Shown piece after piece: positions 3 through 18,610 of a DNA stretch of 35,911 bases. Source of the stretch: Actinomycetota bacterium. GTDB taxonomy: Bacteria > Actinomycetota > UBA4738 > HRBIN12. A program made the position numbers and the translations under genes. Under the pieces are notes generated by a model. The model did not search any database, had not been told where the DNA came from, and saw only the letters and a list, made by a program, of their open reading frames with translations. Numbering within the stretch: the first letter of the stretch is position 1; each line of letters starts with the position of its first letter. Location of the stretch: positions 1 through 35,911 of the forward strand of contig DATEDE010000072.1 of assembly GCA_035286545.1 (NCBI GenBank), written 5' to 3'.

Positions 3-602
3 CCGATCCTCGTCGATGCGGTCCCGCTGATCGGGCATCGCGCGATCCGCAACCGCGGCACCGTCGGCGGCAGCATCGCGCACGCCGACCCCGCCGCCGA
101 GTGGCCGGGCCTCGCGCTCGCCCTCGACGCGACCGTCGAAGCGGTCGGGTCGCGCGGCACGAGGTCGATCGCCGCCGAGGGATTCTTCCTCGCGCCGTTC
201 ACGAACGCGCTCGAGCCCGACGAGCTCGTTCGCGAGATCCGCTTCCGCGTCCCGGGGCCGGGTTCGGGGACGGCCTTCGTCGAGCACTCACGCCGGCACG
301 GCGACTTCGCGCTCGTCGGCGCGGCGGCGGTGGTCCATGTGGGGACCGACGGGAAGGTGTCGAGCGCGAGGATCTCGCTGATCGGGATCGGCGGGACGGC
401 CGTCCGCGCGCCCGACGGCGAGCGTGTGCTCGAGGGTGGGTCGCTCACCGACGCGGACGTCGAGGCGGCCGCGGCGGCGTGCCTGGCCACGGTCGATCCG
501 CCGAGCAGCGTGCACGGGTCGTCGGCGTACCGCCGGCACCTCGTCGGGGTGATGGTCGGGCGGGCGCTCCGGCTCGCGCGCGACCGGGCGAGGGCGGCGT
601 GA
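3..602 (+). CDS. Molybdenum hydroxylase FAD-binding medium subunit (CoxM/XdhB-like), 5' end cut by window edge
   Basis: Frame 3 is open from nt 3. My translation begins PILVDAVPLIGHRAIRNRGTVGGSIAHADPAAEWP and continues ...FVEHSRRHGDFALVGAAAVVHVGTDGKV...SSAYRRHLVGVMVGRAL. This is the pattern of FAD-binding medium subunits of the xanthine dehydrogenase family. TGA 600-602 overlaps the next GTG start. Confidence 0.85.
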   Translation, partial: PILVDAVPLIGHRAIRNRGTVGGSIAHADPAAEWPGLALALDATVEAVGSRGTRSIAAEGFFLAPFTNALEPDELVREIRFRVPGPGSGTAFVEHSRRHGDFALVGAAAVVHVGTDGKVSSARISLIGIGGTAVRAPDGERVLEGGSLTDADVEAAAAACLATVDPPSSVHGSSAYRRHLVGVMVGRALRLARDRARAA

Positions 603-1078
603 GCGCGATCGAGATCACGCTCGAGGTGAACGGCGACCCGGTCGTCGGCAGCGCGGAGCCGCGGACGACCCTTGCAGACTTCCTCCGCGAGGTGGCTGGG
701 CTCACGGGAACGCACCTCGGGTGTGAGCACGGCGTGTGCGGCGCCTGCACGATCCTCCTCGACGGCCGGAGCGTCCGATCGTGCCTCGTGCTCGCGGTGC
801 AGGCCGCGGGCCGCTCGGTGCGCACCGTCGAGGGCCTCGTCGGGCCCGGTGGCGAGCTGCACCCCCTGCAGGAGGCGTTCTCCGAGCTCCACGGTCTGCA
901 GTGCGGCTTCTGCACGCCGGGGTTCCTGATGACCGCGGTCGAGCTCCTCGAGGAGCGACCCAGCCCCGACGAGCGTGAGGTCCGCGAGGCGCTGGCCGGG
1001 AACCTATGCCGGTGCACCGGGTACGTGAACATCGTGAACGCGGTCCTTCTCGCCGCCGACCGGATGCGGGAGCCGTGA
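599..1078 (+). CDS. Molybdenum hydroxylase [2Fe-2S] small subunit (CoxS-like)
   Basis: GTG at 599 overlaps the upstream stop (GTGA). 159 aa. Both iron-sulfur motifs are visible: CEHGVCGACT and CGFCTPG...CRCTGY. The longer track ORF from 101 is an out-of-frame run-in over the previous gene. Confidence 0.9.
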   Translation: MSAIEITLEVNGDPVVGSAEPRTTLADFLREVAGLTGTHLGCEHGVCGACTILLDGRSVRSCLVLAVQAAGRSVRTVEGLVGPGGELHPLQEAFSELHGLQCGFCTPGFLMTAVELLEERPSPDEREVREALAGNLCRCTGYVNIVNAVLLAADRMREP

Positions 1079-3489
1079 GCCCCATGCCCGAGGAGGTGCT
1101 GCGGCTCGCCGAAGCCCGTCACGTGGGAACCCGGCTCCGCCGGCGTGAGGACGCCCGGCTGGTGTCGGGGCGGGCGCAGCACGTCGGCGACCTGCGGCTC
1201 ACGGGCACCGTCCACGCTTCGATCGTCCGAAGCCCCCTCGCCCACGCCCGGATCGGGTCGATCGACGCGACGGCGGCGCGCGGCGCTCCGGGCGTGATCG
1301 GCGTCTACACGGCGGCGGACCTCGAGGGCCGGGTGGATCCGATGGTGGAGTCCGCACGCGAGGACCTGTCCCCGAGGCTCGCCGAGCTCGTGGACCTCGA
1401 GGTGCGCAGCCTCCCGATGCCGGTCCTGGCCACCGACCGCGTCCGCTGGCTCGGCCAGCCGGTCGCGGCCGTCGTCGCGACGGACCCGTACCTCGCCGAG
1501 GACGCGGCGGCGCTCGTAGAGGTCGACTACGATCCGCTGTCGGCCGTGGCGAGCGCCGAGGCGGCGCTCGAGCCGGGGGCGCTCGTCCTGCACCCCGAGC
1601 TGCCGGACAACGTCCATGCCCGGCTCCGCGTGACCGCGGGCGACGTGGATCGCGCGCTCACCGAGGCCGATCACCGGTTGCGCGAGCGGTTCGAGTTGGG
1701 GCGGCAGGTCTCGAACGCGATCGAGCCGCGCGGCGTCCTCGCGAGCGTCGAGGGCGGCGTCCTCACGATCCGCGCGACGAACAACAAGCCCCACCTCGTG
1801 CGGACGTTCGTCTCGCGGATGCTCCGGATCCCCGCCGACCGCGTGCGGTTCGTGAGCCCGGACATGGGCGGCAGCTTTGGCGGCGGCGTGTTCCCGGAGG
1901 ACGTCCTGATCCCGTTCCTCGCGTACGACCTCGGGCGACCGGTCCGCTGGCTCGAGGATCGCCGCGAGAACCTCCTTGCGACCTCACACGGTCGCGATCA
2001 GGTCCACGAGGTGGAGATCGGCTTCCGCGACGACGGCACGGTCGTCGCGTTGCGCGACACGTTCACGATGGACGTGGGGGCGTACAACACGTACGCGGTC
2101 ACGGTGCCGTACAACACGGTCACCCACCTCCGGAGCCAGTACCGGATCGATCACTTCTCGGTCGACGGCTTGGTCGTCCTGACGACCAAGGCGCCGGCGG
2201 TCCCGGTCCGCGGGGCCGGTCGTCCCGAGGCCACGTTCGTGATAGAGCGCTCGATGGACCTCGTCGCGCGCGCGCTAGGCTTGGACCGTGCCGAGGTCCG
2301 CCGCCGCAACCTGATCCGGCCCGAGGAGATGCCCTACGACATGGGGATCCCGTACCGCGACACCGTTCCGATGCGGTACGAGGCGGCCGACTTCCCGGCG
2401 CAGCTCGAGGCCGCGCTCGAGGCGTTCGACTACGAAGGATGGCTCGAGCATCAGCGCGTCGCGCGGTCGCAGGGACGCAGGATCGGTATCGGCATCGCCG
2501 CGTTCATCGAGGGGTCGGGCCACGGGCCGTTCGAGGGGGCGGTCGTCCGGATCGACGAGAGTGGGCACGTCACGCTGCTCAGCGGGGCTCGCCCCCACGG
2601 GCAGGGCCACGAAACCGTGCTCTCGCAGATCGTCGCCGACCAGCTCGGTGTGCGTCCCGACGACGTCGACATCCGGGCGGGCGACACCGCGCTCCTCGCG
2701 TACGGGCGCGGCTCGTTCGCGAGCCGGACCGCCGTGATGGCGGGCAACGCGGCCGCGATCGCCGCGGCGCGGCTGCGCGAGAAGGTGCTCCGGGTCGCTG
2801 CCCGGGTCGTCGGCGCGGACCCCCTGGAGCTGCGGATCGAGGACGGGTGCGTGCGCTGGCCCGGCCACCCCGACGTCGAGATGGACCTGCGACGGGTCGC
2901 CGCGGAAGCGGCCCCCGGACCGAGGAGCCGCGTCGACGCGGGGGAGCAGCCCGGTCTCGAGGAGACCGCCTACTTCGTCCCGCCGACCGCCACGTTCGCC
3001 TCCGGGACGCACCTGGTCGCCGTCGAGGTAGACGCCGACACCGGCGGCGTTCGCGTCCTCGACTACGTCACGGTGGACGAGTGCGGCACCGTGTTGAACC
3101 CGACGATCGTGGAGGGGCAGGTGCATGGCGGTGTCGCGCACGGCCTCGGCAACGCGCTGCTCGAAGAGGCGGTGTACGACGAGGACGGGCAGCTCCTCAC
3201 CACCACGTACCTGGACTACCTCCTGCCGACGTCGATGGACGTCCCCTCGGTCCGCGTGGGCCACCAGGCGTTCCCGTCGGATCGCAATCCGCTCGGCGTG
3301 AAGGGCGTGGGGGAGGGAGGCGCCGTCGCGGCACCGGCCGCGATCGTGAACGCGATCGAGGACGCGATCTGGCCCTCGCCGGTCCGGATCACGCGGATCC
3401 CCGTCGCCCCCGAACGCATCGTCGACGCGATCTCGGCGGTGGGCGGCGCCGCGACGGACCGCGCGACGCAGGAGGATGCGGCGGGGTGA
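1075..3489 (+). CDS. Molybdenum hydroxylase large molybdopterin-binding subunit (xanthine dehydrogenase family; CoxL form-II-like, not a true CODH)
   Basis: GTG 1075 overlaps the CoxS-like stop (GTGA). 804 aa. N-terminus VGTRLRRREDARLVSGRAQHVGDL and C-terminal NPLGVKGVGEGGAVAAPAAIVNAI are typical of this family. The active-site loop reads VPVRGAGRPE rather than the AYxCSFR of form I CO dehydrogenase. Confidence 0.85.
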   Translation: MSPMPEEVLRLAEARHVGTRLRRREDARLVSGRAQHVGDLRLTGTVHASIVRSPLAHARIGSIDATAARGAPGVIGVYTAADLEGRVDPMVESAREDLSPRLAELVDLEVRSLPMPVLATDRVRWLGQPVAAVVATDPYLAEDAAALVEVDYDPLSAVASAEAALEPGALVLHPELPDNVHARLRVTAGDVDRALTEADHRLRERFELGRQVSNAIEPRGVLASVEGGVLTIRATNNKPHLVRTFVSRMLRIPADRVRFVSPDMGGSFGGGVFPEDVLIPFLAYDLGRPVRWLEDRRENLLATSHGRDQVHEVEIGFRDDGTVVALRDTFTMDVGAYNTYAVTVPYNTVTHLRSQYRIDHFSVDGLVVLTTKAPAVPVRGAGRPEATFVIERSMDLVARALGLDRAEVRRRNLIRPEEMPYDMGIPYRDTVPMRYEAADFPAQLEAALEAFDYEGWLEHQRVARSQGRRIGIGIAAFIEGSGHGPFEGAVVRIDESGHVTLLSGARPHGQGHETVLSQIVADQLGVRPDDVDIRAGDTALLAYGRGSFASRTAVMAGNAAAIAAARLREKVLRVAARVVGADPLELRIEDGCVRWPGHPDVEMDLRRVAAEAAPGPRSRVDAGEQPGLEETAYFVPPTATFASGTHLVAVEVDADTGGVRVLDYVTVDECGTVLNPTIVEGQVHGGVAHGLGNALLEEAVYDEDGQLLTTTYLDYLLPTSMDVPSVRVGHQAFPSDRNPLGVKGVGEGGAVAAPAAIVNAIEDAIWPSPVRITRIPVAPERIVDAISAVGGAATDRATQEDAAG

Positions 3490-4559
3490 GGGTCGCGGTC
3501 GTGGGGACGGGCGTCGGCGGCCTCGCGGTCGCCGGCCATGCCGGGCTGATCGGATCGGAGGTCGTGGTCCACGACCTCCGTGAGGAAGCCGTCGGTCCCG
3601 TCGGCGAACGCGGCGGCATCGAGGTCCGAGGCAAGGAGGAGGGGTTCGCGCCGGTGAAGCTCGCGACGACCGACATCGCGCGCGCCGTCGACGGCGCCGA
3701 CCTCGTCGTCGTCACCACGCAGGGACCCGACCAGCGCGCCGCCGCGGAGGCGATGGCGCCGCACCTGCGTGGCGGCCAGGTGGTGTTCGTGAAGCCCGGA
3801 TGCACGTTCGGCGCGCTCGAGGTGCGGGCGGTCCTCGAGGCGGCGGGCGTCGACGACGTCCCCGTCGCGGAGGCGGACAGCTTCGCGTACGGGTGCTCGA
3901 TCCCCGAGCCGGCGGTCTCGCAGATCTCGAGCGTGAAGGAGCGTTTCGGCGTCGCGGTGCTGCCGTCCGAGCGGCGCGAGGAGGTCGTCGAGCTCGTCCG
4001 GCGGCTGTTCGATCAGGCGGAGGCGGCGCCGAGCGTGCTCCATACGGGGCTCGGCAGCATGAACGCGATCCTGCACGTAGCGCCGATGGTCCTGAACGCC
4101 GGCCGGATCGAGGGGCCCGATGCCTTCGACTTCTACGGGAACGGCTTCACGCCCTCGGTGACGGCCGTCGTGCGCGCGATGGACGACGAGCGCGTCGCGG
4201 TCGCGACCGACCTCGACGTCGAGGTCCCCACGCTCGAGGGGTGGGCCGAGGCGACGTACGGCGTCCGCGGCGACGACATGTACGCCATCGTCCAGACGCT
4301 GCATCGCGATGTGTACGGTCCGCTGCCGGCGCCCACCACGCTGCGGCAACGCTACCTCACGGAAGACGTGCCCTGCGGAGCCGTCCCGGTCGCCGACCTC
4401 GCGCGGCAGGTCGGCGTCCCTGCCCCGGTGACGTCCGCGTGCATCACGCTCGCCGACGCGCTGCTCGGGACGGCCTGGAGTCGGGAAGGCCGGACGATGG
4501 CGCGCGTCGGGCTCGAGGGTCTCTCGGCGCGGGAGATCCGTCGGCGTCTCGTAGGCTGA
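3486..4559 (+). CDS. Opine (octopine/nopaline) dehydrogenase family NAD(P) oxidoreductase, paralogue 1
   Basis: GTG 3486 overlaps the large-subunit stop (GTGA). 357 aa. Rossmann motif VAVVGTGVGGLAVAG. Central ...SMNAILHVAPMVLNAGRIE... and ...RYLTEDVPCGAVP... resemble the octopine-DH C-terminal domain. The first 349 aa of track ORF 2439..4559 are an out-of-frame overlap. Confidence 0.7.
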   Translation: MRVAVVGTGVGGLAVAGHAGLIGSEVVVHDLREEAVGPVGERGGIEVRGKEEGFAPVKLATTDIARAVDGADLVVVTTQGPDQRAAAEAMAPHLRGGQVVFVKPGCTFGALEVRAVLEAAGVDDVPVAEADSFAYGCSIPEPAVSQISSVKERFGVAVLPSERREEVVELVRRLFDQAEAAPSVLHTGLGSMNAILHVAPMVLNAGRIEGPDAFDFYGNGFTPSVTAVVRAMDDERVAVATDLDVEVPTLEGWAEATYGVRGDDMYAIVQTLHRDVYGPLPAPTTLRQRYLTEDVPCGAVPVADLARQVGVPAPVTSACITLADALLGTAWSREGRTMARVGLEGLSAREIRRRLVG

Positions 4560-4573
4560 GGCCGCGGTCTCAG
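4556..4573. terminator. Short palindrome spanning both convergent stop codons (possible bidirectional terminator hairpin)
   Basis: CTGAGGCCGCGGTCTCAG can form a 7-bp stem (one G-U pair) with a CGCG loop. It contains TGA 4557-4559 (+ gene) and TCA 4570-4572 (- gene stop). No U-tract. Confidence 0.3.
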
Positions 4574-5475
4574 GGACCGGTGCCGGTCCCGGTCTCGATC
4601 GCCTCGATCCAGCGGCGGATCCCGGACCACTGGCTGCGGCCCACCGTGACGGGTGCGCGCCGGCCGAGCCCGCGCGCCCACACCGCGCGGTGACCGAGCT
4701 CGGCCGCCGCCTCGAGGTCCGAGCGGTCGGGCGGCGGGACGACGTCGAGCACGAGGCTGCCGACGGGCAGTCGCTCGAGGACGGCGCGGTCGACGACCCG
4801 CGCGGGGACGGTGGAGAAGATCATCGCGAGCTCGGGGGCGAGCCCGGGCAGGTCCTCGAGCGGGACGGCCCGCGCCCCGTCGGCGCGCGCAGCCGCCCGT
4901 TGGATCGGGTTGCGAGCGACGACATGGACGTCGGCGCCGAGGGCTCGGAGCCGGCGGGCGAGGACCGAGCCGATGTTCCCGAACCCCACGACCGCCACGC
5001 TCGAACCGTGGATCGTGACATCGGTGTGCTCGATCGCCGAGGCGAGCGCGCCCTCGACGATCGCGGCCGCTCGGAGCAGCATGAGCTCGCGGTCCGGGTC
5101 GTACCCGTGGAGCGTGATCGGCAGGCCGCGCGACGCATCGGCGAGCGCCTCGGTCACGCGCCCGCAGAAGACGTGCGCTCCCTCGCGCAGTGGGGCGAAC
5201 AACGCCCGGTCGATCGGGATCGGCTCGGGCGCGTGCGGCGCGTACAGCGCGCCGCCGACCCCGCGCGGGACCGGGAGGAGCGCGTGATCGGCCCCGCGCA
5301 TCGCCGCCTCGACGCCGTCGACCGCGATGACGCCGTCGATCCCGCCGGCGGGCCAGGGGAACCCGAAGGCGCGGACCGTCGCACCGGTGCGCGCCGCGAG
5401 ATCCGCGATCTCCTGCTCGCGCTCGTCGCCGCCGACGATCGCGAGCGTGATCCGCTCCCAGTCGAGCTTGGTCAA
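4570..5475 (-). CDS. DpaA (dipicolinate synthase subunit A, SpoVFA)-like NAD-binding dehydrogenase, paralogue 1
   Basis: 301 aa with a TTG start. LAIVGGDEREQEI..., ...AAAIVEGALASAIEHTDVTIHGSSVAVVGFGNIG... and C-terminal ARGLGRRAPVTVGRSQW line up with Bacillus SpoVFA as I recall it (IAVIGGDARQLEI / PTVEGTIMLAIQHTDYTIHGSQVAVLGLGRTG / GLPGIVAPKTAGQI). The start overlaps the upstream stop as TTGA. Confidence 0.75.
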   Translation of the reverse strand: MTKLDWERITLAIVGGDEREQEIADLAARTGATVRAFGFPWPAGGIDGVIAVDGVEAAMRGADHALLPVPRGVGGALYAPHAPEPIPIDRALFAPLREGAHVFCGRVTEALADASRGLPITLHGYDPDRELMLLRAAAIVEGALASAIEHTDVTIHGSSVAVVGFGNIGSVLARRLRALGADVHVVARNPIQRAAARADGARAVPLEDLPGLAPELAMIFSTVPARVVDRAVLERLPVGSLVLDVVPPPDRSDLEAAAELGHRAVWARGLGRRAPVTVGRSQWSGIRRWIEAIETGTGTGP

Positions 5476-5672
5476 TGGATCACGTCGGAGCGGTCGATCC
5501 CGAGGAGGCCTCCCCGGCCCCAGTCCTGCTTGGACACCTCGAGGAACCGGACCTGGACCATCTCGCGCCTCGCGCCCGCCTCCTCGATCAGCGCGTCCGT
5601 TATCCGCGCGACGAGCCGCCGTTTCTGATCCAGGGTCCGCCCCTCGAGGAGGTGCACCGTCACCAAGGGCAT
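5472..5672 (-). CDS. 4-oxalocrotonate tautomerase family protein (66 aa), paralogue 1
   Basis: ATG at 5672 (CAT 5670-5672). The product MPLVTVHLLEGRTLDQKRRLVARITDALIEEAGARREMVQVRFLEVSKQDWGRGG... has Pro right after the initiator Met and the 4-OT beta-alpha-beta pattern. The longer track ORF to 5915 adds an Arg-rich, non-homologous extension. Confidence 0.85.
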   Translation of the reverse strand: MPLVTVHLLEGRTLDQKRRLVARITDALIEEAGARREMVQVRFLEVSKQDWGRGGLLGIDRSDVIH

Positions 5673-5692
5673 CGCGACCGCCTCTCCGCGGG

Positions 5693-6682
5693 TCAGAGAC
5701 CGAGCTTGGTCATCGCCTGAGCGTGGTAGCGGTCGCCCGCGGCCGCGCCCGGCGGCGCGATCGCGTCGATCCGATCGAGCTCCTCGGCGGTGAGCTGAAC
5801 GCGCGCCGCTTCGGCGTTCTCCTCGAGGTACCTGCGGCGCTTCGTACCGACGATCGGGACGATGTCGTCCCCGCGCGAGAGCAGCCACGCGAGCGCGAGC
5901 TGTGAAAGGGTGCATCCCGTGACCTGCGCGACCGCCGCGAGGCGATCGATGAGGTCGAGGTTGTGGCGCAGGTTCTCGCCCTGGAACCTGGGGAACTTCC
6001 GCCGGTGGTCACCCTCCACGAGGTCGGTGTCCACGTCGCGGATCTTCCCGGTCAGCAGCGCGCGTCCGAGCGGGCTGTACGCGACGAAGCCGATCCCGAG
6101 CTCGCGGACGGTCGGCAGGATGCCCTCCTCGACGTCGCGGGTTATGAGCGAGTACTCCGTCTGGAGGGCGGCGATCGGATGGGTGGCGTGCGCTCGCCGG
6201 ATCGTCTCGACGCCCGCCTCCGACAACCCGACGTAGCGGACCTTGCCGGCGGCCACGAGCTCCGAGACCGCGCCGATCGTCTCCTCGATCGGCGTGTCTG
6301 GGTCCACGCGGTGCTGGTAGTAGAGGTCGATCACGTCGACGCCGAGGCGTCGCAGGCTCGCGTCGCAGGCCTGCCTGACGTAGTCGGGCCGACCGTTCAC
6401 GCCCGCGAACGCGCCGTTCTCGTCCAGGAGGTTCCCGAACTTCGTCGCGAGGACGACCTGGTCTCGGCGGTCGCGGATCGCCCGTCCGACGAGCTCCTCG
6501 CTGTGCCCGGAGGCGTAGACGTCCGAGGTGTCGATGAAGTCGATCCCGAGATCGAGGGCGCGCCGGATCGTCGCGGTGGCCTCGTCGTCGTCCGGCGTGC
6601 CGTACCACGCCACGCCCATCGTCCCGAGCCCGATCGCCGAGACGACCGGCCCCTCCCGGCCGAGCCTGCGTCGATCCATCAC
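5693..6682 (-). CDS. Aldo/keto reductase family oxidoreductase
   Basis: 329 aa. [17 protein letters not shown]..., [20 protein letters not shown] and ...LYYQHRVDP... are AKR hallmarks. It lies 20 nt upstream of the tautomerase on the same strand, so a three-gene operon is likely. Confidence 0.9.
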
Positions 6683-6883: not shown

Positions 6884-7660
6884 TTGCCTCAAGTCGAGAT
6901 CCGCGGTGTGGGCAAGTCGTTCCCCAGGCAAGGCGACGGCGGCATGCTGCGGGTCCTGAACGACGTGAACATCACGCTCGAGGAGCGGACGTTCACGTGC
7001 CTCGTCGGCCCGAGCGGGTGCGGGAAGTCGACGCTCCTGCGGATCATCGACGGCCTGATGGCTCCCGACACGGGGGAGGTCCGGATCGGGGGCGAGGTTG
7101 TGACGTCGCCGTCCCTCGACCGCGGCTTCGTCTTCCAGCACTTCAACCTGCTGCCATGGCGCACCGTCCTGGGCAACATCGAGTTCGGGCTCGAGAACCT
7201 CGGCGTGAAGAAGGGGGAGCGCCGCCCCAAGGCGACCGAGATCCTCAAGCTCGTCGACCTCGAGGGGTTCGAGAGCTACTACCCCGGGCAGCTCTCGGGC
7301 GGGATGCAGCAGCGGGTCGGGCTCGCGCGCGCGCTCGCCGTCGATCCATCGCTCCTGCTGATGGACGAGCCGTTCGGCTCGGTCGACGACCAGACACGGA
7401 TGCTGCTGCAGGAGGAGCTCCTGAACATCTGGGAGCGCGACCAGAAGACCGTTGTCTTCGTCACCCACGACATCGAAGAGGCGCTCTACCTCGGCGACCG
7501 CGTCGTCGTGATGCGGGCGCGCCCGTCGAAGGTCTCACGGGTGATCGAGGTCCCGTTCGGCCGACCGCGCGTGGATGAGGTCCGCGGCTCGCCGGAGCTG
7601 GCCAGGCTCAAGCAGGAGATCTGGGACGAGCTGAAGTCCGGCGCGACGGTCGAAGGGTAG
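6884..7660 (+). CDS. ABC transporter ATP-binding protein, NitT/TauT (nitrate/sulfonate/taurine) family
   Basis: TTG start preceded by GGAAGG. Walker A GPSGCGKST, signature LSGGMQQRVGLARAL, Walker B LLLMDEPF. Confidence 0.9.
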   Translation: MPQVEIRGVGKSFPRQGDGGMLRVLNDVNITLEERTFTCLVGPSGCGKSTLLRIIDGLMAPDTGEVRIGGEVVTSPSLDRGFVFQHFNLLPWRTVLGNIEFGLENLGVKKGERRPKATEILKLVDLEGFESYYPGQLSGGMQQRVGLARALAVDPSLLLMDEPFGSVDDQTRMLLQEELLNIWERDQKTVVFVTHDIEEALYLGDRVVVMRARPSKVSRVIEVPFGRPRVDEVRGSPELARLKQEIWDELKSGATVEG

Positions 7661-7667
7661 CGGAGGC

Positions 7668-8558
7668 ATGGCGGATACGACACACCGGGAGGGCCTTGCG
7701 ACCGACGCCGCCGGGGCCCCCGCTGTCGTGGACGCCGCCGTCGCCGATGCCCCCCCGAGCGCGGCGAGCCGCCCACCCCCGTCGCGGCTGAAAGCGCTCC
7801 TCGAGAAGAAGTGGTTCCTCCGCCTCGTCGTGTACGGCGGGATACTCCTCGTCTTCCAGATCATCGCGATGCGGCAGGGTCCGTTCTTCCTGCCGACGAT
7901 CCCGGACATCCTGGCCGCGATCGTGGAGCTGTTCGCCGAGGGGTACATCACGGTGATGGGCCCGACGCTCCAGCAGCTGGTCGTCGGGTTCTTCCTCGCG
8001 ATGGCCATCGCGATCCCGCTCGGCGTGTTGATGGGGCGCTACGGTTTCTGGGAGGACGTCCTCGCGCCGTGGGTGAACACGATCTACGTGACCAGCAAGG
8101 AGTCCCTCCTCCCGATCCTGATCTTGATCTTCGGCCTCGGGTTCGGCTACCGAGTGATGGTCGTGGTCCTGTTCGCGGTGTTCTTCCCGATCATCAACAC
8201 GGCCGCGGGCATCCGGTACGTGGAGCGCGAGCTGCGGGAGACCGCCGAGGCCTTCGCGACGCCTCCATGGCGGATGGTCACCCGCGTGTACCTGCCGGCG
8301 GCGGCGCCGTTCATCGTCGCCGGGGTCAGGATGGGCCTCGCGATGGCGATCAAGGGCATGGTCATCGCCGAGATCTGGGTGTACATCGGAACCGGCGAGC
8401 TGCTCACGGCGTTCACACTGTCGCCTCGGCGGCTCGACCTCTACTACGCGCTCGCCACGGTGATCATCGTCGTGGCGGTGACGGCGAACGCGCTCCTGAA
8501 GCTCGCCGAGCAGCGACTCCGTCCGTACTCGAAGCTGCAGCGACAGGAAGCCGTCTGA
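7668..8558 (+). CDS. ABC transporter permease (NitT/TauT family), with Ala/Pro-rich N-terminal extension
   Basis: 296 aa with multiple hydrophobic spans. EAA-like loop ...AAGIRYVERELRETAEAFATPPWRMVTRVYLPAAAP.... The start is uncertain because the first ~50 aa are low complexity. Confidence 0.8.
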   Translation: MADTTHREGLATDAAGAPAVVDAAVADAPPSAASRPPPSRLKALLEKKWFLRLVVYGGILLVFQIIAMRQGPFFLPTIPDILAAIVELFAEGYITVMGPTLQQLVVGFFLAMAIAIPLGVLMGRYGFWEDVLAPWVNTIYVTSKESLLPILILIFGLGFGYRVMVVVLFAVFFPIINTAAGIRYVERELRETAEAFATPPWRMVTRVYLPAAAPFIVAGVRMGLAMAIKGMVIAEIWVYIGTGELLTAFTLSPRRLDLYYALATVIIVVAVTANALLKLAEQRLRPYSKLQRQEAV

Positions 8559-9313
8559 TGAACCGGCCCCTGCACGTGAAGATGCTCCGGTGGGCCCTGT
8601 CGATCGGGGTCTTCTTCCTGTTGTGGGAGATCGTCGGTCGCAGCGGGAAGTTCATCTCGATCGTGCCCCCGACGGTCGTCATCCCCGAGCTCATCGAGAT
8701 CTTGAAGGAGGGCGACATCCTCGTCGCCGCTCGCTCGACGCTGGCGCTCGCGGCGACCGGGTTCGTGATCGGAGCGGTCATCGGGATCTCGACGGGCGCA
8801 TGGATGGCCGCATCGCCGCGTGTGGCCGCCGTCCTCGACCCGATCGTGAGCGCCTCGTTCTCGGTCCCGTTCGCGATCTTCATCCCGGTCATCTCGATCT
8901 ACCTGGGCCTGGAGTTCACGGCGAAGGTCGTGCTCGTCGTCCTGTTCAACGTCTTCATCATCAACATCAACACGGCGACGGGGATCCGCGAGGTGCCGGC
9001 CGGCCCGAAGGAGATGGCGCGGTCCGTCGAGACGAGCAGGGTCGACATGTACCGCAAGGTGATCCTGCCGTGGGCGAGCCCGCACATCATCACCGGCCTG
9101 CGGCTCGGGGTGGGCCGGTCGGTCCAGGGCGCCATCCTCGCGGACCTGTTCCTGCGGGCCCAGGCGCTCGGGCTGTTCATCGTGGATGCGCAAGGTCGGT
9201 TCGACATCCCGCGGCTGCTCGCCGCGGTCTTCTTCGTGACCATCCTCGCGGCGGGCGTGATGGGGATCGCCCGTCTCGTCGAGTGGAAGATACTCGCGTG
9301 GAAGCGGGCATAG
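8558..9313 (+). CDS. ABC transporter permease (NitT/TauT family), second subunit
   Basis: ATG 8558 shares one nt with the upstream TGA (TGATG). 251 aa. ...ATGIREVPAGPKEMARSVETSRVDMYRKVILPWASP... is an EAA-type loop. The track ORF from 7811 is an out-of-frame run-in. Confidence 0.85.
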   Translation: MNRPLHVKMLRWALSIGVFFLLWEIVGRSGKFISIVPPTVVIPELIEILKEGDILVAARSTLALAATGFVIGAVIGISTGAWMAASPRVAAVLDPIVSASFSVPFAIFIPVISIYLGLEFTAKVVLVVLFNVFIININTATGIREVPAGPKEMARSVETSRVDMYRKVILPWASPHIITGLRLGVGRSVQGAILADLFLRAQALGLFIVDAQGRFDIPRLLAAVFFVTILAAGVMGIARLVEWKILAWKRA

Positions 9314-9466
9314 GCGTGCGGAGGCGGCGCAAGGGAGAGGAGGGCCGGGGAGGTGGTCGATGCCTGCAGTCGCTCCCGCCGTAGGGCGACGGGGGCTGGC
9401 CGGGGTCTAACGGGTCCCGGCGGTACGCGCATCATCGAGCGCACGTTGGACCGAAGGGAGGGCACG

Positions 9467-10573
9467 TTGAAACGACGGCACGTAAGGATGTTGGCGCTGG
9501 TCGCGGTCCTGGCGCTGGTTGGGGCTGCGTGCAGCGGCGATGAGGACGGAGGCGGGGGCGGCGACGGCGAGGCGGACGTCGTCCGGCACGCGGCGGGGTC
9601 GACCGCCGACGCGTACATCCCGCAGTACCGCGCGCCAGAGATCTTCGGAGACCTGTTCGGCATCAGCACGGACGAACACCTCCAGATGTTCGAGGAGGGC
9701 TCGCTCGCCGCGCAGGTCGTGGCGACGGGTGACGCCGACGTCGGCTCCGGTGGTTTCACGAACATGGTGCAGCTCCTCGAGACCGGCCAGGACGTGAAGG
9801 TCTTCTGTCCCACCCAGAAGGACAGCACGGAGCACCTCATTGGGCGGACCGACGTGATCACGTCGCTCGAGCAGATCACCGACCCGGACGTCCGCGTCGC
9901 GGTCGAGAGCGCCGGTGGGTTCCTCAACCTGTTGATGAACCTGGTCTTCCTGAACCGGGACATCGGCATCACGACCGATGACCTCACGAACACCGTGATC
10001 CTCGAGGACGGGAGCCTACGACTGGCGGCGATGGCCGCGGGCGACGTGGACGTCGCGTCGCTCGACCTGTTCGAGCAGGCCGACCTGAAGGCGGAGCTCG
10101 GCGAGGACGCCGTGACGGTCCTCTCCGTCGTCGCGGAGGACGCGGAGTTCCTGTCGAACGTCCTGTGGGCGAAGACCGACTGGCTGGCGGAGAACGCGGA
10201 CGTCGCGGCGCGCTACTGCGCGACGGTGCTGTACTCGAACCGCCAGATGGCGTCCGACTACGAGCAGTACAAGGCCGCGCTGGAGGAGTTCTCGGCGACG
10301 GGGATCGAGGACGAGGCCGTCGTCCAGGCCAACTGGGACTTCGCGAAGCAGTACGAGGTCTGGCCGTACAACACGACGGTCCTCACGCCGGAGGTCATCG
10401 CGGATCAGCTCCAGGTGTCGGTGGACACCGGCATCATCGAGCCCGAGACCGGTGAGCTCGGCTTCGAGGACCTCGTCGACACCGAGGTCTTGGCGATGGC
10501 GCAGGAGTACCTCGGTGGTGAGGTGACTGCCGCGGACGTCGATTCGGGCAACATCCCCGAGCCGAACGCCTGA
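9467..10573 (+). CDS. ABC transporter substrate-binding lipoprotein (NMT1/SsuA-like)
   Basis: TTG 9467 lies 5 nt after GGGAGG and gives MKRRHVRMLALVAVLALVGAAC, i.e. a basic n-region, a hydrophobic core and a lipobox-like Cys. This is followed by an acidic Gly/Asp linker (SGDEDGGGGGDGEAD). ATG 9488 is an alternative start. Confidence 0.7.
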   Translation: MKRRHVRMLALVAVLALVGAACSGDEDGGGGGDGEADVVRHAAGSTADAYIPQYRAPEIFGDLFGISTDEHLQMFEEGSLAAQVVATGDADVGSGGFTNMVQLLETGQDVKVFCPTQKDSTEHLIGRTDVITSLEQITDPDVRVAVESAGGFLNLLMNLVFLNRDIGITTDDLTNTVILEDGSLRLAAMAAGDVDVASLDLFEQADLKAELGEDAVTVLSVVAEDAEFLSNVLWAKTDWLAENADVAARYCATVLYSNRQMASDYEQYKAALEEFSATGIEDEAVVQANWDFAKQYEVWPYNTTVLTPEVIADQLQVSVDTGIIEPETGELGFEDLVDTEVLAMAQEYLGGEVTAADVDSGNIPEPNA

Positions 10574-11403: not shown

Positions 11404-12075
11404 ATGAGCGGACCATCGACGGGACCTGCCGACGACGACGTGCTTGACCCGGTGCGTTGCCTGCTCGCCGTCATCGACGTCCAGAACGACTTCTGTCACG
11501 AAGATGGCGCGTACGCGCGGATGGGACATCCGGTGGGCATGGCGGCCGCGGCTGTTGAGGGGATCCGCGCCACCCTGGACCTCGCCAGCCGCGTCGACGT
11601 GCCACGGGTCGTCGTGCGGGTCGCGCACTCGCCTTGGACCGACGATCCCGCGTGGGCCGCGCGGGGCGCCGCGGGCTCCGTCCTCGACGTCGTGCGGGTC
11701 CCGGTCGCACGCGAGGGGACGTGGGGCGCCGAGTTCTTCGGGATCGAGCCCGACCCCGACGCGATGGTGCTCACGAAGCACCGGTACTCGGCGTTCGTCC
11801 ACACCCCGCTCGAGCTGTACCTGCGCGCGCGCGGCGCGACCACGATCGTCCTCGCGGGCGTGGCGACGAACGTATGCGTCCACGCGACCGCCCGGGACGC
11901 GCTGCACGCGGGCTTCCTGCCGGTCGTGCTCGAGGACGCGACCGCGGCGCATAGCGCGGAGGCGCATGAACGCGCGCTCGAGGACGTCCGGAGCTTCATC
12001 GGTCGCGTCGCGACCGTCGCCGACCTCGAGCGCGCGTGGGGCGGGTCGCGTATGCCCGCCGCCGCAGGCGCCTAG
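11404..12075 (+). CDS. Isochorismatase-family cysteine hydrolase (RutB / N-carbamoyl or ureido-amide amidohydrolase-like), copy 1
   Basis: ATG 11404 follows GAAGGAGGA. Asp/Lys/Cys triad context: AVIDVQNDFC, TKHRYSAF, ATNVCVHATARDA. Also EGTWGAEFF. Confidence 0.85.
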   Translation: MSGPSTGPADDDVLDPVRCLLAVIDVQNDFCHEDGAYARMGHPVGMAAAAVEGIRATLDLASRVDVPRVVVRVAHSPWTDDPAWAARGAAGSVLDVVRVPVAREGTWGAEFFGIEPDPDAMVLTKHRYSAFVHTPLELYLRARGATTIVLAGVATNVCVHATARDALHAGFLPVVLEDATAAHSAEAHERALEDVRSFIGRVATVADLERAWGGSRMPAAAGA

Positions 12076-13007: not shown

Positions 13008-13017
13008 GGAGGTCGTG

Positions 13018-13734
13018 ATGTCGAGCGGTTGGCGCGACGTGATCCCACCCGAGGACCGGGCGATCTACGACGCGGCCGGGTACGGCCGGCGGGGGCGGCG
13101 AGGTACTTCGCCGGCGCTCCTCGTGATCGACGTAACGTACGGGTTCATCGGACGCGAACGGCTCCCGATCCTCGAGTCGATCGCCCGGTACCCGAACTCG
13201 TGCGGCGAGCGCGGGTGGGACGCGATGCAGCGCATCGAGCGACTCGTGGACCTCGCGCGTGAGGCGTCGGTGCCGATCTACTACACGGCCGGCGTCACGG
13301 ACCACGCGGTCGCGCACGCCGGGCGCTGGCGGGAGAAGCACCCGCGGACGCTCGAGCAGCCGAAGGACGCGCATGTGATCCCCGAACCGATCGCGCCGCG
13401 GGACGGGGACATCGTGATCCGCAAGACGAAACCGAGCGTCTTCTACGGCACGCCGCTCCTGTCGTCGCTCGTCGACCACGGGGTCGACACGGTGATCGCG
13501 ACGGGATGCACCACCTCCGGGTGCGTGCGCGCGACCGTCGTCGACGCCTTCTCGAACGGATTCGCCACGATCGTCGTCGAGGACGCCGTGTTCGACCGGG
13601 GCGAGCTCAGCCACGCCGTGAACCTGTTCGATATGGACCAGAAATATGCGGACGTGATCGACACCGACCAGGCGCTCGCCTACCTGGAGTCGCTGGGCGA
13701 TCGTCTCGACCGGCCGGGAGCGCCGACCCGATGA
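13018..13734 (+). CDS. Isochorismatase-family cysteine hydrolase (N-carbamoylsarcosine amidase / maleamate amidohydrolase NicF-like), copy 2
   Basis: ATG 13018 lies 5 nt after GAGGAGG (GTG 13015 is too close to it). Triad context: LLVIDVTYGF, IRKTKPSVFYGT, ATGCTTSGCVRATVVDA. C-terminal NLFDMDQKYADV. Confidence 0.8.
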   Translation: MSSGWRDVIPPEDRAIYDAAGYGRRGRRGTSPALLVIDVTYGFIGRERLPILESIARYPNSCGERGWDAMQRIERLVDLAREASVPIYYTAGVTDHAVAHAGRWREKHPRTLEQPKDAHVIPEPIAPRDGDIVIRKTKPSVFYGTPLLSSLVDHGVDTVIATGCTTSGCVRATVVDAFSNGFATIVVEDAVFDRGELSHAVNLFDMDQKYADVIDTDQALAYLESLGDRLDRPGAPTR

Positions 13735-14690
13735 TCCTCCTGAAGGCGGACGAGGTTCGCGGTCTCCTCGACCCCGGCGCCGTGCTCGCGACCGTCGAGG
13801 AGGCGCTGCGCATGGAGCACGCCGGCACGGTGCGATGGTCCTCACCGGCGAGCCTGCGGGTGGCCGGCGGCGACGGGCAGGGACGGGTCCGCGTGAAGGC
13901 GTGCTCGCTCGACGGACCGAGCGTGACCGGCATACGCGTCCTGCACTTCCCGGCGGCGGGCGCGGAGACCAGGTGGGTCCTCCTGTTCGACGGCGTCTCG
14001 GGCGAGCCGCTCGCGATCGTCGATGAGGCCGCGACGTATGGTGATCGATCGTTCGCCTCGGTCGCGCTGCTCGCGCATCGGGTCCGCGTGGATCCGGTCG
14101 ACACCGTCGCGATCCTCGGCGCCGGGCGCATCGCACGCGCCGCGCTCCCGTACGTGGCCCACCGGTTCCCGGGCGCCGCGGTCGAGATCGCCGCGCGTCG
14201 CCCTCCGGCCGCCGCCACGCTTGCCGACCTCGCGCGCGCCCGCCACGGCCTGCGCGCGACGCCGACGTCGTTCGAGACGGCCGTCCGGACGGCGCAGGTC
14301 GTCTTCGGGTGCACGAGCGCGATCGAGCCGATCGTCCGCGAGCAATGGGTCGCCCCCGGGACGGTGGTCGCGTCCCTCGAGCCCCGCGAGCTCGAGCCTG
14401 CGCTGTTCGCCGGCGCGGACCTGCGGGTCGTGGACCGTCGCGAGCAGCTGGGCGAGGAGCTCGACGATGCGTTCGGCCCCGGAGCCTCCGAACGGGTGGA
14501 CGCGACGATGGCCGAGATCGTCGGCGGCGCCCATCCGGGGCGGACGGCGGCGGGCCAGCGGATCGTGATCGTCAGCCAGGGCCTCGTCAGCCAGGACGTC
14601 CTGCTCGCCGAGCGCGTGTTCCGCGAGGCCGTGGCGCGCGGGATCGGCAAGGCGATCGCGCTGCCACCCGTCCCGGGTCCCGCGCGGTGA
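13731..14690 (+). CDS. Ornithine cyclodeaminase / mu-crystallin family protein (possible ketimine/imino-acid reductase)
   Basis: ATG 13731 overlaps the upstream stop (ATGA). 319 aa. Rossmann VAILGAGRIARAAL. The N-terminal LKADEVRGLLDPGAVLATVEEAL pattern is typical of the family. Confidence 0.7.
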   Translation: MILLKADEVRGLLDPGAVLATVEEALRMEHAGTVRWSSPASLRVAGGDGQGRVRVKACSLDGPSVTGIRVLHFPAAGAETRWVLLFDGVSGEPLAIVDEAATYGDRSFASVALLAHRVRVDPVDTVAILGAGRIARAALPYVAHRFPGAAVEIAARRPPAAATLADLARARHGLRATPTSFETAVRTAQVVFGCTSAIEPIVREQWVAPGTVVASLEPRELEPALFAGADLRVVDRREQLGEELDDAFGPGASERVDATMAEIVGGAHPGRTAAGQRIVIVSQGLVSQDVLLAERVFREAVARGIGKAIALPPVPGPAR

Positions 14691-14716
14691 TCCCTACCCG
14701 GTGTTCGGTTGTATCG

Positions 14717-15996: not shown

Positions 15997-16311
15997 GTGG
16001 CTGAGACCCGGCAACACCTGGCGCTGACCTACGAGGGGGCGGCGACGGTGCTCGCCGCCGCCGTGCGGAGGACCGAGGAGATCGGCGCGCGGCAGTGCAT
16101 CGCCGTCACCGACGACGGTGGCTACCTGCTCGCGTTCGGGCGGACCGACGGCGGGAAGGCGACGAACCTGCGGGGCGGGCTGCCGATCGTCGTGGACGGC
16201 CATCTGATCGGCGCGATCGGCGTGGGTTCGGGCACGGGGGAGCAGGACGTCGAGGTTGCGGCGGCCGGCGTCGCGGCGCTCGCGGGTGCGAAGGACTGGA
16301 CGAACGAGTAG
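15997..16311 (+). CDS. GlcG/HbpS-like (DUF336) protein, shortened
   Basis: GTG 15997 follows GGAGGAGGAG. 104 aa. IAVTDDGGYLLAFGRTDG and GGLPIVVDGHLIGAIGVGSGTGEQD match the two ends of GlcG-type proteins, but the central ~35 aa appear absent. Confidence 0.6.
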   Translation: MAETRQHLALTYEGAATVLAAAVRRTEEIGARQCIAVTDDGGYLLAFGRTDGGKATNLRGGLPIVVDGHLIGAIGVGSGTGEQDVEVAAAGVAALAGAKDWTNE

Positions 16312-16319
16312 GGGGAGCG

Positions 16320-17477
16320 ATGAAGATCACCGAGGTCGAGACCTTCAACGTGGCGCTGCCGTGGCGCCGGCTGCACAAGATGGCGTTCCCGTCCGGCAAG
16401 CTCGGGAACTACTCGATCGTCCGCATCCGCACGGACGAGGGCTTCGAGGGGCTGGGCGAGGCCACCGTCATCAAGGAGTGGGGCGGCGACTACGGCCGGT
16501 ACTTCGGTGAGTCCCCCGAGCTCACGGTCGCCGTCATCAACTCGGTGCTCGGACCCGCGCTGATCGGCCACGACCCGTTCGCGATCGAGCGCGCGCATCG
16601 CGAGATGGATCTCGCGGTGAAGGGTTACCCCTACGCGAAGACCGCGATCGACGAGGCGCTCCACGACATCAAGGGGAAGGCGCTCGGCGTCCCCGTGTAC
16701 GAGCTCCTCGGCGGCCTGTGGCGCGAGGAGATCCCGATCGCGCACTCGCTCGGGTGGATGGAGTACGAGGAGGCGACGTCGGAAGCGGCCGCCGCCGTCG
16801 CCGAGGGCATCCGCACGATCAAGATCAAGGTCGGCCGCTCGGAGGAGTACGACGTCCGGATCGTGCGCGAGGTCCGCGAGACGGTCGGCGATGACGTCGA
16901 CATCGTCGTCGACGCGAACCAGGGATGGCCGACCCCCAAGCACGCGATCCGCGTGCTGCGCCAGATGCAGGAGTACCGGCTCCGCTACGCGGAGCAGCCG
17001 GTCGAGGGGATCGCACGGATGGCCCGGGTCGCGCGGGCGGTCGACGTGCCCATCATGGCCGACGAGAGCGCCTGGACCCCGCAGGACGTCCTCGAGATCG
17101 TCGAGCGCGGCGCCGCGGACATGATCTCGCTCTACACGACGAAGCCGGGCGGTCTGTTCAAGGCCAAGAAGGTGGCGGCGGTGGCCGAAGCGGCCGGCCT
17201 CCCGCTCAACGTGAACGGCTCGCACGAGACCGGGGTCGGGAACGCGGCGAACCTGCACCTCGTAGCCTCGACGGCGGCGGTCACCGAGGCGGGCGTGTTC
17301 CCCGTGACGACGATCGAGGGCAAGGAGCCGACCACGATGGCCGGCAAGATGTACCTCGACGACATCATCACGCAGCCGTTCGAGTACCGCGACGGCAACC
17401 TGATCGTCCCGTCGGGCCCGGGCCTCGGGATCGAGCTCGACGAGGAGAAGGTCGCGCGCTACCGGACCGGGGGGTAG
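16320..17477 (+). CDS. Enolase-superfamily enzyme, muconate-lactonizing (MLE) subgroup (racemase/epimerase/cycloisomerase/dehydratase)
   Basis: 385 aa. KxK motif IKIKVG, metal ligands in VVDANQGW, AEQPV, MADES, and a second catalytic Lys in LYTTKPGG. Confidence 0.85.
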   Translation: MKITEVETFNVALPWRRLHKMAFPSGKLGNYSIVRIRTDEGFEGLGEATVIKEWGGDYGRYFGESPELTVAVINSVLGPALIGHDPFAIERAHREMDLAVKGYPYAKTAIDEALHDIKGKALGVPVYELLGGLWREEIPIAHSLGWMEYEEATSEAAAAVAEGIRTIKIKVGRSEEYDVRIVREVRETVGDDVDIVVDANQGWPTPKHAIRVLRQMQEYRLRYAEQPVEGIARMARVARAVDVPIMADESAWTPQDVLEIVERGAADMISLYTTKPGGLFKAKKVAAVAEAAGLPLNVNGSHETGVGNAANLHLVASTAAVTEAGVFPVTTIEGKEPTTMAGKMYLDDIITQPFEYRDGNLIVPSGPGLGIELDEEKVARYRTGG

Positions 17478-17482
17478 CGGCG

Positions 17483-18610
17483 ATGGCGATCCGAGACGTC
17501 GCGATCCTCGGAGCCGGCAACGGCGGCTGCGCCGCGGCCGCGGACCTCGGCAGCCGCGGGTACCGCGTCCGGCTCTACAACCGGTCGTCCGAGCGGTTGG
17601 TCGGCATCGTCGAGCGAGGCGGGCTCGAGAAGCTCGGTGCCGCCGGCGAGGGGTTCGTCGAGATCCCGGTGGTGACGACCGACCTGTCGGAGGCCGTCGG
17701 CGGCGCGGATCTCGTCATGCTCTCCGTCCCGATCTCGACGCACCCGTTCTTCGCGCAGGGTCTGGCCCCCCTGCTGCAGCCGGACCAGGTCCTGTTCCTG
17801 AACCCGGGGCACATGGGCGGGGGCCTCTTCATGGCGCACGAGCTGCATCGCCTGACCGGTCGCACGGACGTCCGGATCTGCGAGACGAGCACGCTCACCT
17901 ACGGCTGCCGGATGCGGGGCCCGGGGACGGTGAACATCATGGCGACGATGACGAACCTGCCGTTCGCGGCGTTCCCGGGCCGCAACCAGCAGGAGCTCTA
18001 CGACCTGATCGCGCCGCTCTACCCCGACATCGTGCAGGCGTCGCACGTGCTCGAGACGGGCTTCATGGACATCAACGCGGTCGAGCACCCGCCGCAGATC
18101 ATCTGCAACGCGGGGTGGCTCGAGCACACCAAGGGCGACTACCTCTTCTACTACGAGGGCACCACGCCGGGGGTCGCCCGCGTGATCGAGGCGCTCGATG
18201 CCGAGCGGATGGCGATCGCGGCCGCGGCGGGCATCCCGACCCGCCCGTTCGTCGAGGTGTTCCACGCGATGGGGTACACGAGCGCGCACGCGGCCGAGGT
18301 CGGCTCGGCGTACGTGGCCCTGCAGGAGAGCGAGCCGAACCGATGGGTGAAGGGCCCACCTACGCTCGACCATCGCTACATCAACGAGGACGTCGGCTGG
18401 GGCCTAGTGCCGTGGTCGGAGATGGGTCGCTCGTTCGGCGTCCAGACGCCCACGATGGATGCCCTCATCGTGCTCGGGGGCGTCCTGAACGGGCGCGACT
18501 ACCGCGCCGAGGGCCTGACGCTCGAGCGGCTCGGCCTCGCCGGCGTGCGCCCCGAAGACCTGGACGCGTACCTTCGGGAGGGCATCGCTACCGTGGAGGG
18601 TGGTGGATGA
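17483..18610 (+). CDS. Opine dehydrogenase family NAD(P) oxidoreductase, paralogue 2
   Basis: ATG 17483. 375 aa. Rossmann VAILGAGNGGCAAAADL. ...DINAVEHPPQIICNAGWLE... and ...RYINEDVGWGLVP... parallel the motifs in paralogue 1. Confidence 0.7.
   Translation: MAIRDVAILGAGNGGCAAAADLGSRGYRVRLYNRSSERLVGIVERGGLEKLGAAGEGFVEIPVVTTDLSEAVGGADLVMLSVPISTHPFFAQGLAPLLQPDQVLFLNPGHMGGGLFMAHELHRLTGRTDVRICETSTLTYGCRMRGPGTVNIMATMTNLPFAAFPGRNQQELYDLIAPLYPDIVQASHVLETGFMDINAVEHPPQIICNAGWLEHTKGDYLFYYEGTTPGVARVIEALDAERMAIAAAAGIPTRPFVEVFHAMGYTSAHAAEVGSAYVALQESEPNRWVKGPPTLDHRYINEDVGWGLVPWSEMGRSFGVQTPTMDALIVLGGVLNGRDYRAEGLTLERLGLAGVRPEDLDAYLREGIATVEGGG

Follow-up and report, generated by a model that had tools for sequence, protein, structure and literature searches.

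What does a homologue of dipicolinate synthase subunit A (DpaA) do in a catabolic gene cluster that lacks both its partner DpaB and any sporulation gene? The question is raised by a contig of an Actinomycetota bacterium (DATEDE010000072.1, assembly GCA_035286545.1), analysed over its full length of 35,911 nucleotides (hereafter the window; G+C 71%). It encodes two such DpaA-like proteins, each with a small tautomerase of the 4-oxalocrotonate tautomerase (4-OT) family close by. The first DpaA-like gene (copy 1, type T1) occupies positions 4570..5475 on the minus strand and encodes 301 amino acids, and the second (copy 2, type T2) lies at 20931..21860 on the plus strand and encodes 309. We found that these genes are paralogues in a distinct clade of the DpaA family that goes without DpaB, and that they belong to the core of a conserved catabolic operon of 10–15 genes present in Actinomycetota, Opitutales, Betaproteobacteria and Alphaproteobacteria. 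The reading that we favour, with a probability of roughly 0.6, is that the DpaA-like proteins are DpaB-independent NAD(P)(H) oxidoreductases acting on an intermediate of the cyclic imino-acid type, or on a conjugated N-heterocyclic carboxylate, with the tautomerase as a partner in the same pathway.

Both DpaA-like proteins match the Pfam profile DpaA_N (PF16924; 59.5 bits for copy 1 and 55.7 for copy 2, cut-off 29.2) together with the NAD-binding Rossmann domain 2-Hacid_dh_C (PF02826; 36 and 33 bits). The two tautomerases, each of 66 amino acids, match the profile Tautomerase (PF01361; 56.0 and 52.5 bits, cut-off 22). The open reading frames (ORFs) and these matches confirm both gene sets and all the family assignments proposed in an earlier note on this DNA. 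The DpaA-like copies share 61% identity over an ungapped alignment (179/293, E = 2e-124), in line with the 60% estimated there by eye. The tautomerases share 42 identities over 64 ungapped aligned positions and differ at their last two residues, which gives the 42 of 66 counted there as well. Both DpaA-like genes use TTG, the sole start codon that retains the family-invariant Trp10.

Neither protein reaches the cut-offs of the curated equivalog models. They score 156.6 and 156.4 bits with the DpaA model TIGR02853 (cut-off 319.65), and 176.8 and 182.5 bits with the DpsA model NF006162 (cut-off 261), on which a homologue from Shinella reaches 194 bits. A profile search of the PDB with the clade retrieved only 2RIR (E = 2e-39) and 3D4O, which are structural-genomics entries of DpaA, followed by generic Rossmann enzymes. 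The AlphaFold2 model of copy 2 (pLDDT 87) gave the same two entries as best matches in Foldseek (E = 7e-22, TM-score about 0.68, 26–27% identity), and was next closest to the folds of S-adenosylhomocysteine hydrolase (SAHH), transhydrogenase domain I (dI) and alanine dehydrogenase (AlaDH). No characterised family other than DpaA matched the clade in NCBIfam, where the matches were the sub-threshold DpsA and DpaA models, or in the PDB, and a full-text literature search found no relevant paper on it. It is a small clade. Across the whole DpaA family, E ≤ 1e-30 is reached by 96 representatives at 50% identity, some 25 of which share at least 40% identity with the query.

The closest known relative is thus DpaA (SpoVFA) of Bacillus, the best match in both sequence and structure. 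The clade shares with it the architecture of DpaA_N plus Rossmann domain, the GxGxxG motif (glycines G168, G170 and G173 are invariant in the clade) and an Arg after strand beta-2. It differs in its scores below the equivalog cut-offs, its lack of a DpaB partner, its carriers, which are not spore-formers, and its catabolic operon. It also has two clade-specific invariant motifs, YDPDRELM and WARGxGxRAP, at positions where B. subtilis DpaA has other residues. These motifs, which sit in the two lowest-confidence segments of the AlphaFold2 model, hint at a substrate site unlike that of DpaA.

We used the two motifs in a pattern scan, with one genome per species, and obtained 77 related loci. Most are from Actinomycetota, including cultured Pseudarthrobacter, Arthrobacter, Actinomadura, Amycolatopsis, Leucobacter, Mycobacterium/Mycolicibacterium, Nocardioides, Dactylosporangium and Cellulomonas. 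Other carriers are metagenome-assembled genomes (MAGs) of Opitutales and, among Betaproteobacteria, Pandoraea terrae, Variovorax davisae and a Burkholderia MAG. A search of plasmid proteins showed the same operon on megaplasmids of Aminobacter, Shinella and Phyllobacterium, whose records name the DpaA-like product 'dipicolinate synthase subunit DpsA'. To search for DpaB we used the B. subtilis sequence, validated on TIGR02852 (349 bits, cut-off 229). In the window and 84 loci (1.49 Mb of neighbourhoods), no tblastn match was better than E = 1.5, and all six-frame ORFs failed to give a match with phmmer. Hence no DpaB was detected in the neighbourhoods of any of the 77 related loci. Nor did the clustering of all neighbourhood ORFs reveal a flavoprotein of about 200 amino acids among the recurrent families. 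Alpha- and betaproteobacterial operons encode a 227-amino-acid protein, annotated 'resolvase' or 'hypothetical', between the cyclic amidohydrolase and the tautomerase (L084:14240-14923; also in L082, L083, L054, L063 and L066). We considered it as a DpaB substitute and discarded it, as it has no Pfam match, shows no similarity to DpaB and is missing from actinobacterial loci.

By their scores and motifs, the DpaA-like proteins are not orthologues of DpaA, and they have neither the equivalog score, nor the DpaB partner, nor the sporulation context that define DpaA proper. The gene map of the window contains no sporulation gene, the carriers elsewhere belong to the Actinomycetota, Opitutales, Beta- and Alphaproteobacteria, and the neighbours are catabolic enzymes, in agreement with the setting described in the earlier note. 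The proteins could still be genuine dipicolinate synthases that dispense with DpaB, and their dipicolinate might, for example, chelate metals or be a secondary metabolite. This would account for their public names ('dipicolinate synthase subunit A', 'DpsA') and for the fold shared with 2RIR. We regard it as highly improbable. Besides the scores below both curated cut-offs and the absence of DpaB, dapA and dapB were not seen among the conserved neighbours, the hydrolases, importer and GntR regulator are typical of catabolism, and the window has two diverged copies within one catabolic island. The clade is almost certainly misnamed and very unlikely to make dipicolinate. The RefSeq name 'dipicolinate synthase subunit DpsA' given to the Aminobacter and Shinella plasmid proteins (L082-L084) is probably an over-annotation, and the public label is probably wrong for the clade as a whole, in non-sporulating bacteria of several phyla.

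The related loci follow three layouts. In layout T2, that of the close relatives of the window, the order is enolase-type protein, opine dehydrogenase (opine-DH), tautomerase, VOC, DpaA-like, DAO, M24, short-chain dehydrogenase/reductase (SDR), Amidohydro_2 and hydantoinase. Layout T1 is found in the lineage of the window only, is fully syntenic in five MAGs, and has a molybdenum hydroxylase (Mo-hydroxylase) and an opine-DH convergent with an aldo/keto reductase (AKR), tautomerase and DpaA-like gene. All other phyla and genera have layout C: tautomerase, isochorismatase-family hydrolase, VOC, (M24), enolase-type, opine-DH, DpaA-like and cyclic amidohydrolase. Common flanks of the operon are a TRZ/ATZ or cytosine-deaminase-like aminohydrolase, a GntR regulator and an NMT1-type ABC importer. 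Among the recurrent families retrieved by ORF clustering were the enolase-type, isochorismatase, hydantoinase-like, opine-DH, tautomerase, ABC transporter and TRZ/ATZ aminohydrolase families, as well as M24, SDR, GntR, aldehyde dehydrogenase, a hydroxypyruvate-isomerase-like TIM barrel and cytosine-deaminase-like proteins. In most loci the enolase-superfamily gene precedes the DpaA-like gene by about 1.1 kb.

In the window, copy 1 is the last of three closely packed minus-strand genes (6682..4570). The AKR gene comes first (5693..6682; Pfam Aldo_ket_red, 274.8 bits), followed by the tautomerase (5472..5672), which begins with ATG and a Pro codon and has a Shine-Dalgarno-like run (GGAGAGG) before the ATG. 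The DpaA-like TTG start overlaps the tautomerase stop as TTGA. The same gene order is kept in five MAGs (L016, L018, L020, L021 and L078). In copy 2, the plus-strand tautomerase (20375..20575; GTG then Pro, preceded by GGAGGAG) is separated from the DpaA-like gene by a gene missed earlier, which encodes a VOC/glyoxalase-family protein of 120 amino acids (20572..20934; Pfam Glyoxalase, 66.1 bits). At its two ends this gene overlaps its neighbours, as GTGA with the stop of the tautomerase and as TTGA with the start of the DpaA-like gene. The translationally coupled tautomerase and DpaA-like module that the earlier note described twice therefore exists in copy 1 only. A TTG start within a TTGA overlap with the upstream stop is present in both copies, but in copy 2 the upstream gene encodes the VOC protein and not the tautomerase.

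The distance between the two genes varies across the related loci. The tautomerase gene directly adjoins the DpaA-like gene in 5 of the 77, all close relatives of the window, and lies within 500 nt, with the VOC gene between, in 17. It is 0.5–5 kb away in 42 loci, mostly 2–4.5 kb upstream with three to five genes between, and more than 5 kb away in one. It was not found in the remaining 12, of which 10 have flanks too short to judge and two (L042 and L056) lack it despite an adequate flank. The tautomerase is thus within 5 kb in 64/77 loci, or 64/67 where the flank permits judging. Co-occurrence is conserved, as the earlier note supposed, but direct adjacency is not, and the usual neighbours of the DpaA-like gene are the opine-DH and the cyclic amidohydrolase, the latter immediately downstream in 37/73 loci. 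The gene that follows the tautomerase (n = 65) encodes an isochorismatase in 35 cases, a VOC protein in 25 and the DpaA-like protein in five.

The earlier note suggested a two-component enzyme made of tautomerase and DpaA-like protein. Such a dedicated enzyme, in which the two would be stably associated and would couple hydride transfer to enamine/imine tautomerisation on a cyclic imine carboxylate, must be weighed against these counts. Co-occurrence speaks for it, as do the TTGA overlap of copy 1, repeated in the five syntenic MAGs, and the pairing of each DpaA-like type with its own tautomerase type. The scarcity of direct adjacency, the 42 loci with intervening genes and the identity of the gene after the tautomerase leave the dedicated pairing unsupported. 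Gene fusions also point elsewhere. We observed an isochorismatase::VOC fusion (Shinella, L084:15122-16111) and a DpaA-like::VOC fusion (metagenomic representative P0126), but no fusion of tautomerase and DpaA-like protein among the 150 best family representatives. Two further candidate fusions, P0123 (DpaA-like with a DAO fragment) and P0121 (848 amino acids), were set aside as probable read-through or mis-called ORFs. Finally, the tautomerase is missing in places, and not only from L042 and L056. In the related MAG L001 (1983-3061), a T1-like module consists of opine-DH, AKR, a 51-amino-acid ORF, DpaA-like and M24. We examined the short ORF as a possible tautomerase and rejected it, which implies that the tautomerase was lost from this copy. 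We therefore consider a two-component enzyme unlikely.

What is duplicated in the window is larger than the tautomerase and DpaA-like pair, since each copy also has an opine-DH-family gene nearby. The two opine-DH proteins are 32% identical. The first (3486..4559, plus strand; Pfam Octopine_DH, 135.6 bits), whose position is conserved in the five MAGs, is convergent with DpaA-like copy 1 and overlaps the stop of the Mo-hydroxylase. The second (17483..18610, plus strand; 134.6 bits) has as PDB match 1BG6, the CENDH of Arthrobacter sp. 1C (E = 8e-57), an enzyme that is hence related to the usual upstream neighbour of the DpaA-like gene and not to the DpaA-like protein itself. Opine dehydrogenases catalyse the NAD(P)-dependent C–N oxidoreduction of secondary-amine dicarboxylates. 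Across the related loci, the opine-DH gene directly precedes the DpaA-like gene, in the same orientation, in 50/77 cases and is convergent downstream in 5/77. Such proximity raises the possibility that DpaA-like protein and opine-DH are the true functional pair, acting as sequential C=N reductases or dehydrogenases or as a complex. Together with the enolase-type racemase and the FAD-dependent D-amino-acid dehydrogenase, they would act on an N-substituted (opine-like) or D-configured amino acid, inverting or cleaving it, and the tautomerase would belong to a separate hydrolase/VOC sub-module. The stop/start overlaps in the plasmid versions, the resemblance to CENDH, the occurrence of DadA and RidA in plasmid operons, and the best PDB match of the enolase-type protein (2p88, which we take to be an N-succinyl-Arg/Lys racemase) are in favour of such a pair. 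However, the opine-DH gene is 0.6–3.2 kb away from the DpaA-like gene in T2 loci and on the opposite strand, with the Mo-hydroxylase, in T1 loci. No fusion of the two was seen, and the cyclic amidohydrolase and deaminases would be left unexplained. A functional pair of this kind seems doubtful to us.

The other genes around the two copies bear on the class of substrate. Next to copy 1, the plus-strand Mo-hydroxylase (3..3489) has three CoxM/S/L-like subunits: a CoxM-like fragment (3..602), a CoxS-like subunit (599..1078) and a large subunit (about 1084..3489) with NCBIfam matches to the CODH/xanthine-dehydrogenase family. They were assigned from these matches, the translations and synteny. The Mo-hydroxylase is translationally coupled to the first opine-DH gene and is kept in the same five MAGs. 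From this linkage, the substrate of the T1 module may be a hydroxylated heteroaromatic compound or an aldehyde. The genes around copy 2 are all on the plus strand. The enolase-superfamily protein (16320..17477) is nearest to the muconate-lactonizing subgroup (TIGR02534, 265 bits, cut-off 335). Between the second opine-DH and the tautomerase, and translationally coupled to the former, is a gene for a divergent asparaginase-like protein of 527 amino acids (18607..20190; Pfam Asparaginase, 31.2 bits, residues 200-297), which in related MAGs is again found near clusters of both the T1 and the T2 type. After the DpaA-like gene come an FAD-dependent, D-amino-acid-dehydrogenase-like oxidoreductase (21857..23155; Pfam DAO, 220 bits; NF001933, 200 bits, under its cut-off) and an M24 hydrolase of the creatinase/Xaa-Pro-peptidase family (23152..24264; PepQ/DoeA-type NCBIfam matches, all under cut-off, and Creatinase_N plus Peptidase_M24 in orthologues). 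They are followed by an SDR oxidoreductase (24340..25149) and an Amidohydro_2 protein (25183..26181), in an order repeated in L004-L017, and by a dihydropyrimidinase/D-hydantoinase (26178..27560; TIGR02033, 567.9 bits, above the cut-off of 393).

The plasmid operons provide further clues. In Aminobacter and Shinella, genes for opine-DH, the DpsA-like protein, amidohydrolase, the 227-amino-acid protein, tautomerase and the isochorismatase::VOC fusion form one run in which the stop of each gene overlaps the start of the next. The same regions encode a cytosine-deaminase-like protein, GntR, RidA, a CobW-type metallochaperone, an NMT1-type ABC importer and the transhydrogenase PntAB, and the two Aminobacter plasmids have in addition a D-amino-acid dehydrogenase and malate synthase G. 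The presence of RidA, DadA and malate synthase suggests imine or enamine intermediates and, in some hosts, a glyoxylate-type end product. The amidohydrolase adjoining the DpaA-like gene in layout C scores between dihydropyrimidinase, allantoinase and dihydroorotase, under all their cut-offs, and the opine-DH family has no NCBIfam equivalog match.

The tautomerases resemble 4-OT (DmpI/XylH) in length (about 62–66 residues), in the Pfam family, in Pro1 and Arg11, and in the C-terminal GxGG motif, and their PDB relatives are 4-OT-family structures. Among 66 family members, the N-terminal Met-Pro (Pro1) and the Gly-Arg at positions 10 and 11 (mature numbering) are present in at least 90% of the sequences in T1 and in C, and in most of T2. 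In contrast to 4-OT, position 39 is not Arg but Gln, in both copies and in T1 and T2, or His in layout C, and Trp replaces Phe50. The replacement of Arg39 argues against 2-hydroxymuconate as the substrate. The neighbours differ as well: no meta-cleavage genes were found in the window or the related loci, where isochorismatase-family and VOC genes are found instead. Copy 2 is under all the 4-OT equivalog cut-offs. Copy 1 exceeds just one of them, that of NF002571 (58.4 bits, cut-off 55, a margin of 3 bits), and fails TIGR00013 and NF001966.

Taken together, the gene content points to an operon that would import a nitrogen compound, remove exocyclic or amide nitrogen and open a cyclic amide, with two NAD(P)-linked oxidoreductases of the C–N type and three enzymes of enolate or tautomer chemistry. 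In the reading that we favour, the substrate would be an imported nitrogen-containing carboxylate, probably a cyclic amide, ureide, amidine or N-substituted amino acid. The DpaA-like and opine-DH-like proteins would catalyse NAD(P)(H)-dependent hydride transfer on an intermediate of the cyclic imino-acid type, at a C–N/C=N bond or at a conjugated C=C bond. This hydride chemistry would give rise to enamine/imine or enol/keto shifts and epimerisations, of which the Pro1 tautomerase, the VOC protein and the enolase-type protein would take charge, and amidohydrolases would then open the ring and remove nitrogen. A rearrangement of the operon in the lineage of the window probably put the tautomerase and VOC genes directly before the DpaA-like gene (T2), and T1 is a second, diverged module beside the Mo-hydroxylase.

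The role proposed for the DpaA-like protein is based on its AlaDH-like fold, on the reaction of dipicolinate synthase and on the precedent of DapB. AlaDH-like enzymes transfer hydride at a carbon bonded to nitrogen, dipicolinate synthase dehydrogenates a dihydropyridine dicarboxylate, and DapB performs a ring hydride transfer followed by an enamine-to-imine tautomerisation. DapB and the ketimine (P2C/Pyr2C) reductases DpkA and OCD/mu-crystallin reduce cyclic imine carboxylates with NAD(P)H. They would be comparable in the way they work only, since they are not homologous to the DpaA-like protein, whose fold is of the AlaDH/SAHH/transhydrogenase-dI type. The cyclic imine or enamine carboxylate chemistry suggested in the earlier note is plausible.

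Several points weigh against the favoured reading. The chemistry and the substrate class are inferred from family chemistry and gene context; what the data show directly is family membership, the absence of DpaB from the neighbourhoods and the conservation of the operon. The TTGA coupling of T1 and the presence of a tautomerase at nearly every locus are compatible with a physical complex. The locus statistics concern the motif-defined clade rather than all DpaA_N proteins outside Firmicutes, and neighbours were called by tblastn with queries derived from the window, which may miss divergent ones. Finally, neighbour-joining trees of the DpaA-like proteins and of the nearest tautomerases both resolve the groups T1, T2 and C, but their deep branching orders differ, and a protein of 66 amino acids resolves little. 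Hence we make no claim on the ancestral module.

The same gene set could serve an undescribed reductive breakdown route, independent of flavin, for a carboxylate of the N-heteroaromatic kind. A pyridine- or pyrimidine-carboxylate would be a candidate (for example dipicolinate, or a compound of the orotate/aminopyrimidine type). The DpaA-like and opine-DH-like proteins would then deliver successive hydrides from NAD(P)H, the 4-OT-family tautomerase and the VOC protein would shift the double bond (enamine to imine) between the hydride steps, and the hydantoinase-type enzyme would open the ring, in effect reversing the chemistry of DpaA for catabolism. A known system of similar logic, reductive pyrimidine catabolism, also involves NAD(P)H-linked reductases, ring opening of the dihydropyrimidinase type and RutB-like amidases, and PntAB is encoded next to the plasmid operons. 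It differs in that no Fe-S flavoprotein of the PydA/PreTA type was found here, in the extra enolase-type, opine-DH, VOC and tautomerase genes, and in the adjacent amidohydrolase, which in most genomes is under the dihydropyrimidinase and allantoinase cut-offs. We regard this route as rather unlikely. As for individual substrates, we considered creatinine/glycocyamidine, hydantoins, allantoin/purines, pterins, the thiamine pyrimidine, orotate, dipicolinate, hydroxyprolines, opines and diketopiperazines. Each fits only part of the gene set and none was adopted.

Solving the reaction of the clade would provide the first DpaB-independent function for the DpaA fold and would assign a substrate to an orphan catabolic operon that is widespread among soil Actinomycetota and on rhizobial megaplasmids. 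To our knowledge, the chemical contribution of DpaA to spore dipicolinate synthesis is still poorly defined, and the clade might illuminate it.

The rest of the window contains other components of this type of operon. An ABC transporter is encoded on the plus strand at 6884..10573, with an ATPase (6884..7660; Pfam ABC_tran), two permeases (7668..8558 and 8558..9313; BPD_transp_1) and a binding protein (9353..10573). The latter is weakly NMT1-like (20.1 bits, just below the cut-off of 20.5), and L027 and L084 carry clear NMT1-type binding proteins. A TRZ/ATZ-family aminohydrolase (30165..31598, plus strand) and a GntR regulator (31610..32440, minus strand) both recur in related loci. An isochorismatase-family hydrolase of the RutB/BiuH-like kind (27594..28274, plus strand) has two plus-strand paralogues at 11404..12075 and 13015..13734, which makes three within one 17-kb stretch. 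The one at 11404..12075 seems to run some 40 nt into an EamA transporter gene that starts at 12036, which makes one of the two starts uncertain. The region of about 1 kb at 13735..14700 has no convincing gene, its only long ORF (13842..14534, minus strand) showing no Pfam match and an atypical codon-position G+C. An HbpS/GlcG-like ORF at 15997..16311 (plus strand) encodes 104 amino acids, with at most 118 codons from stop to stop. Its orthologues have about 140 amino acids and are 55–57% identical to it, and the gene may be N-terminally truncated or decaying.

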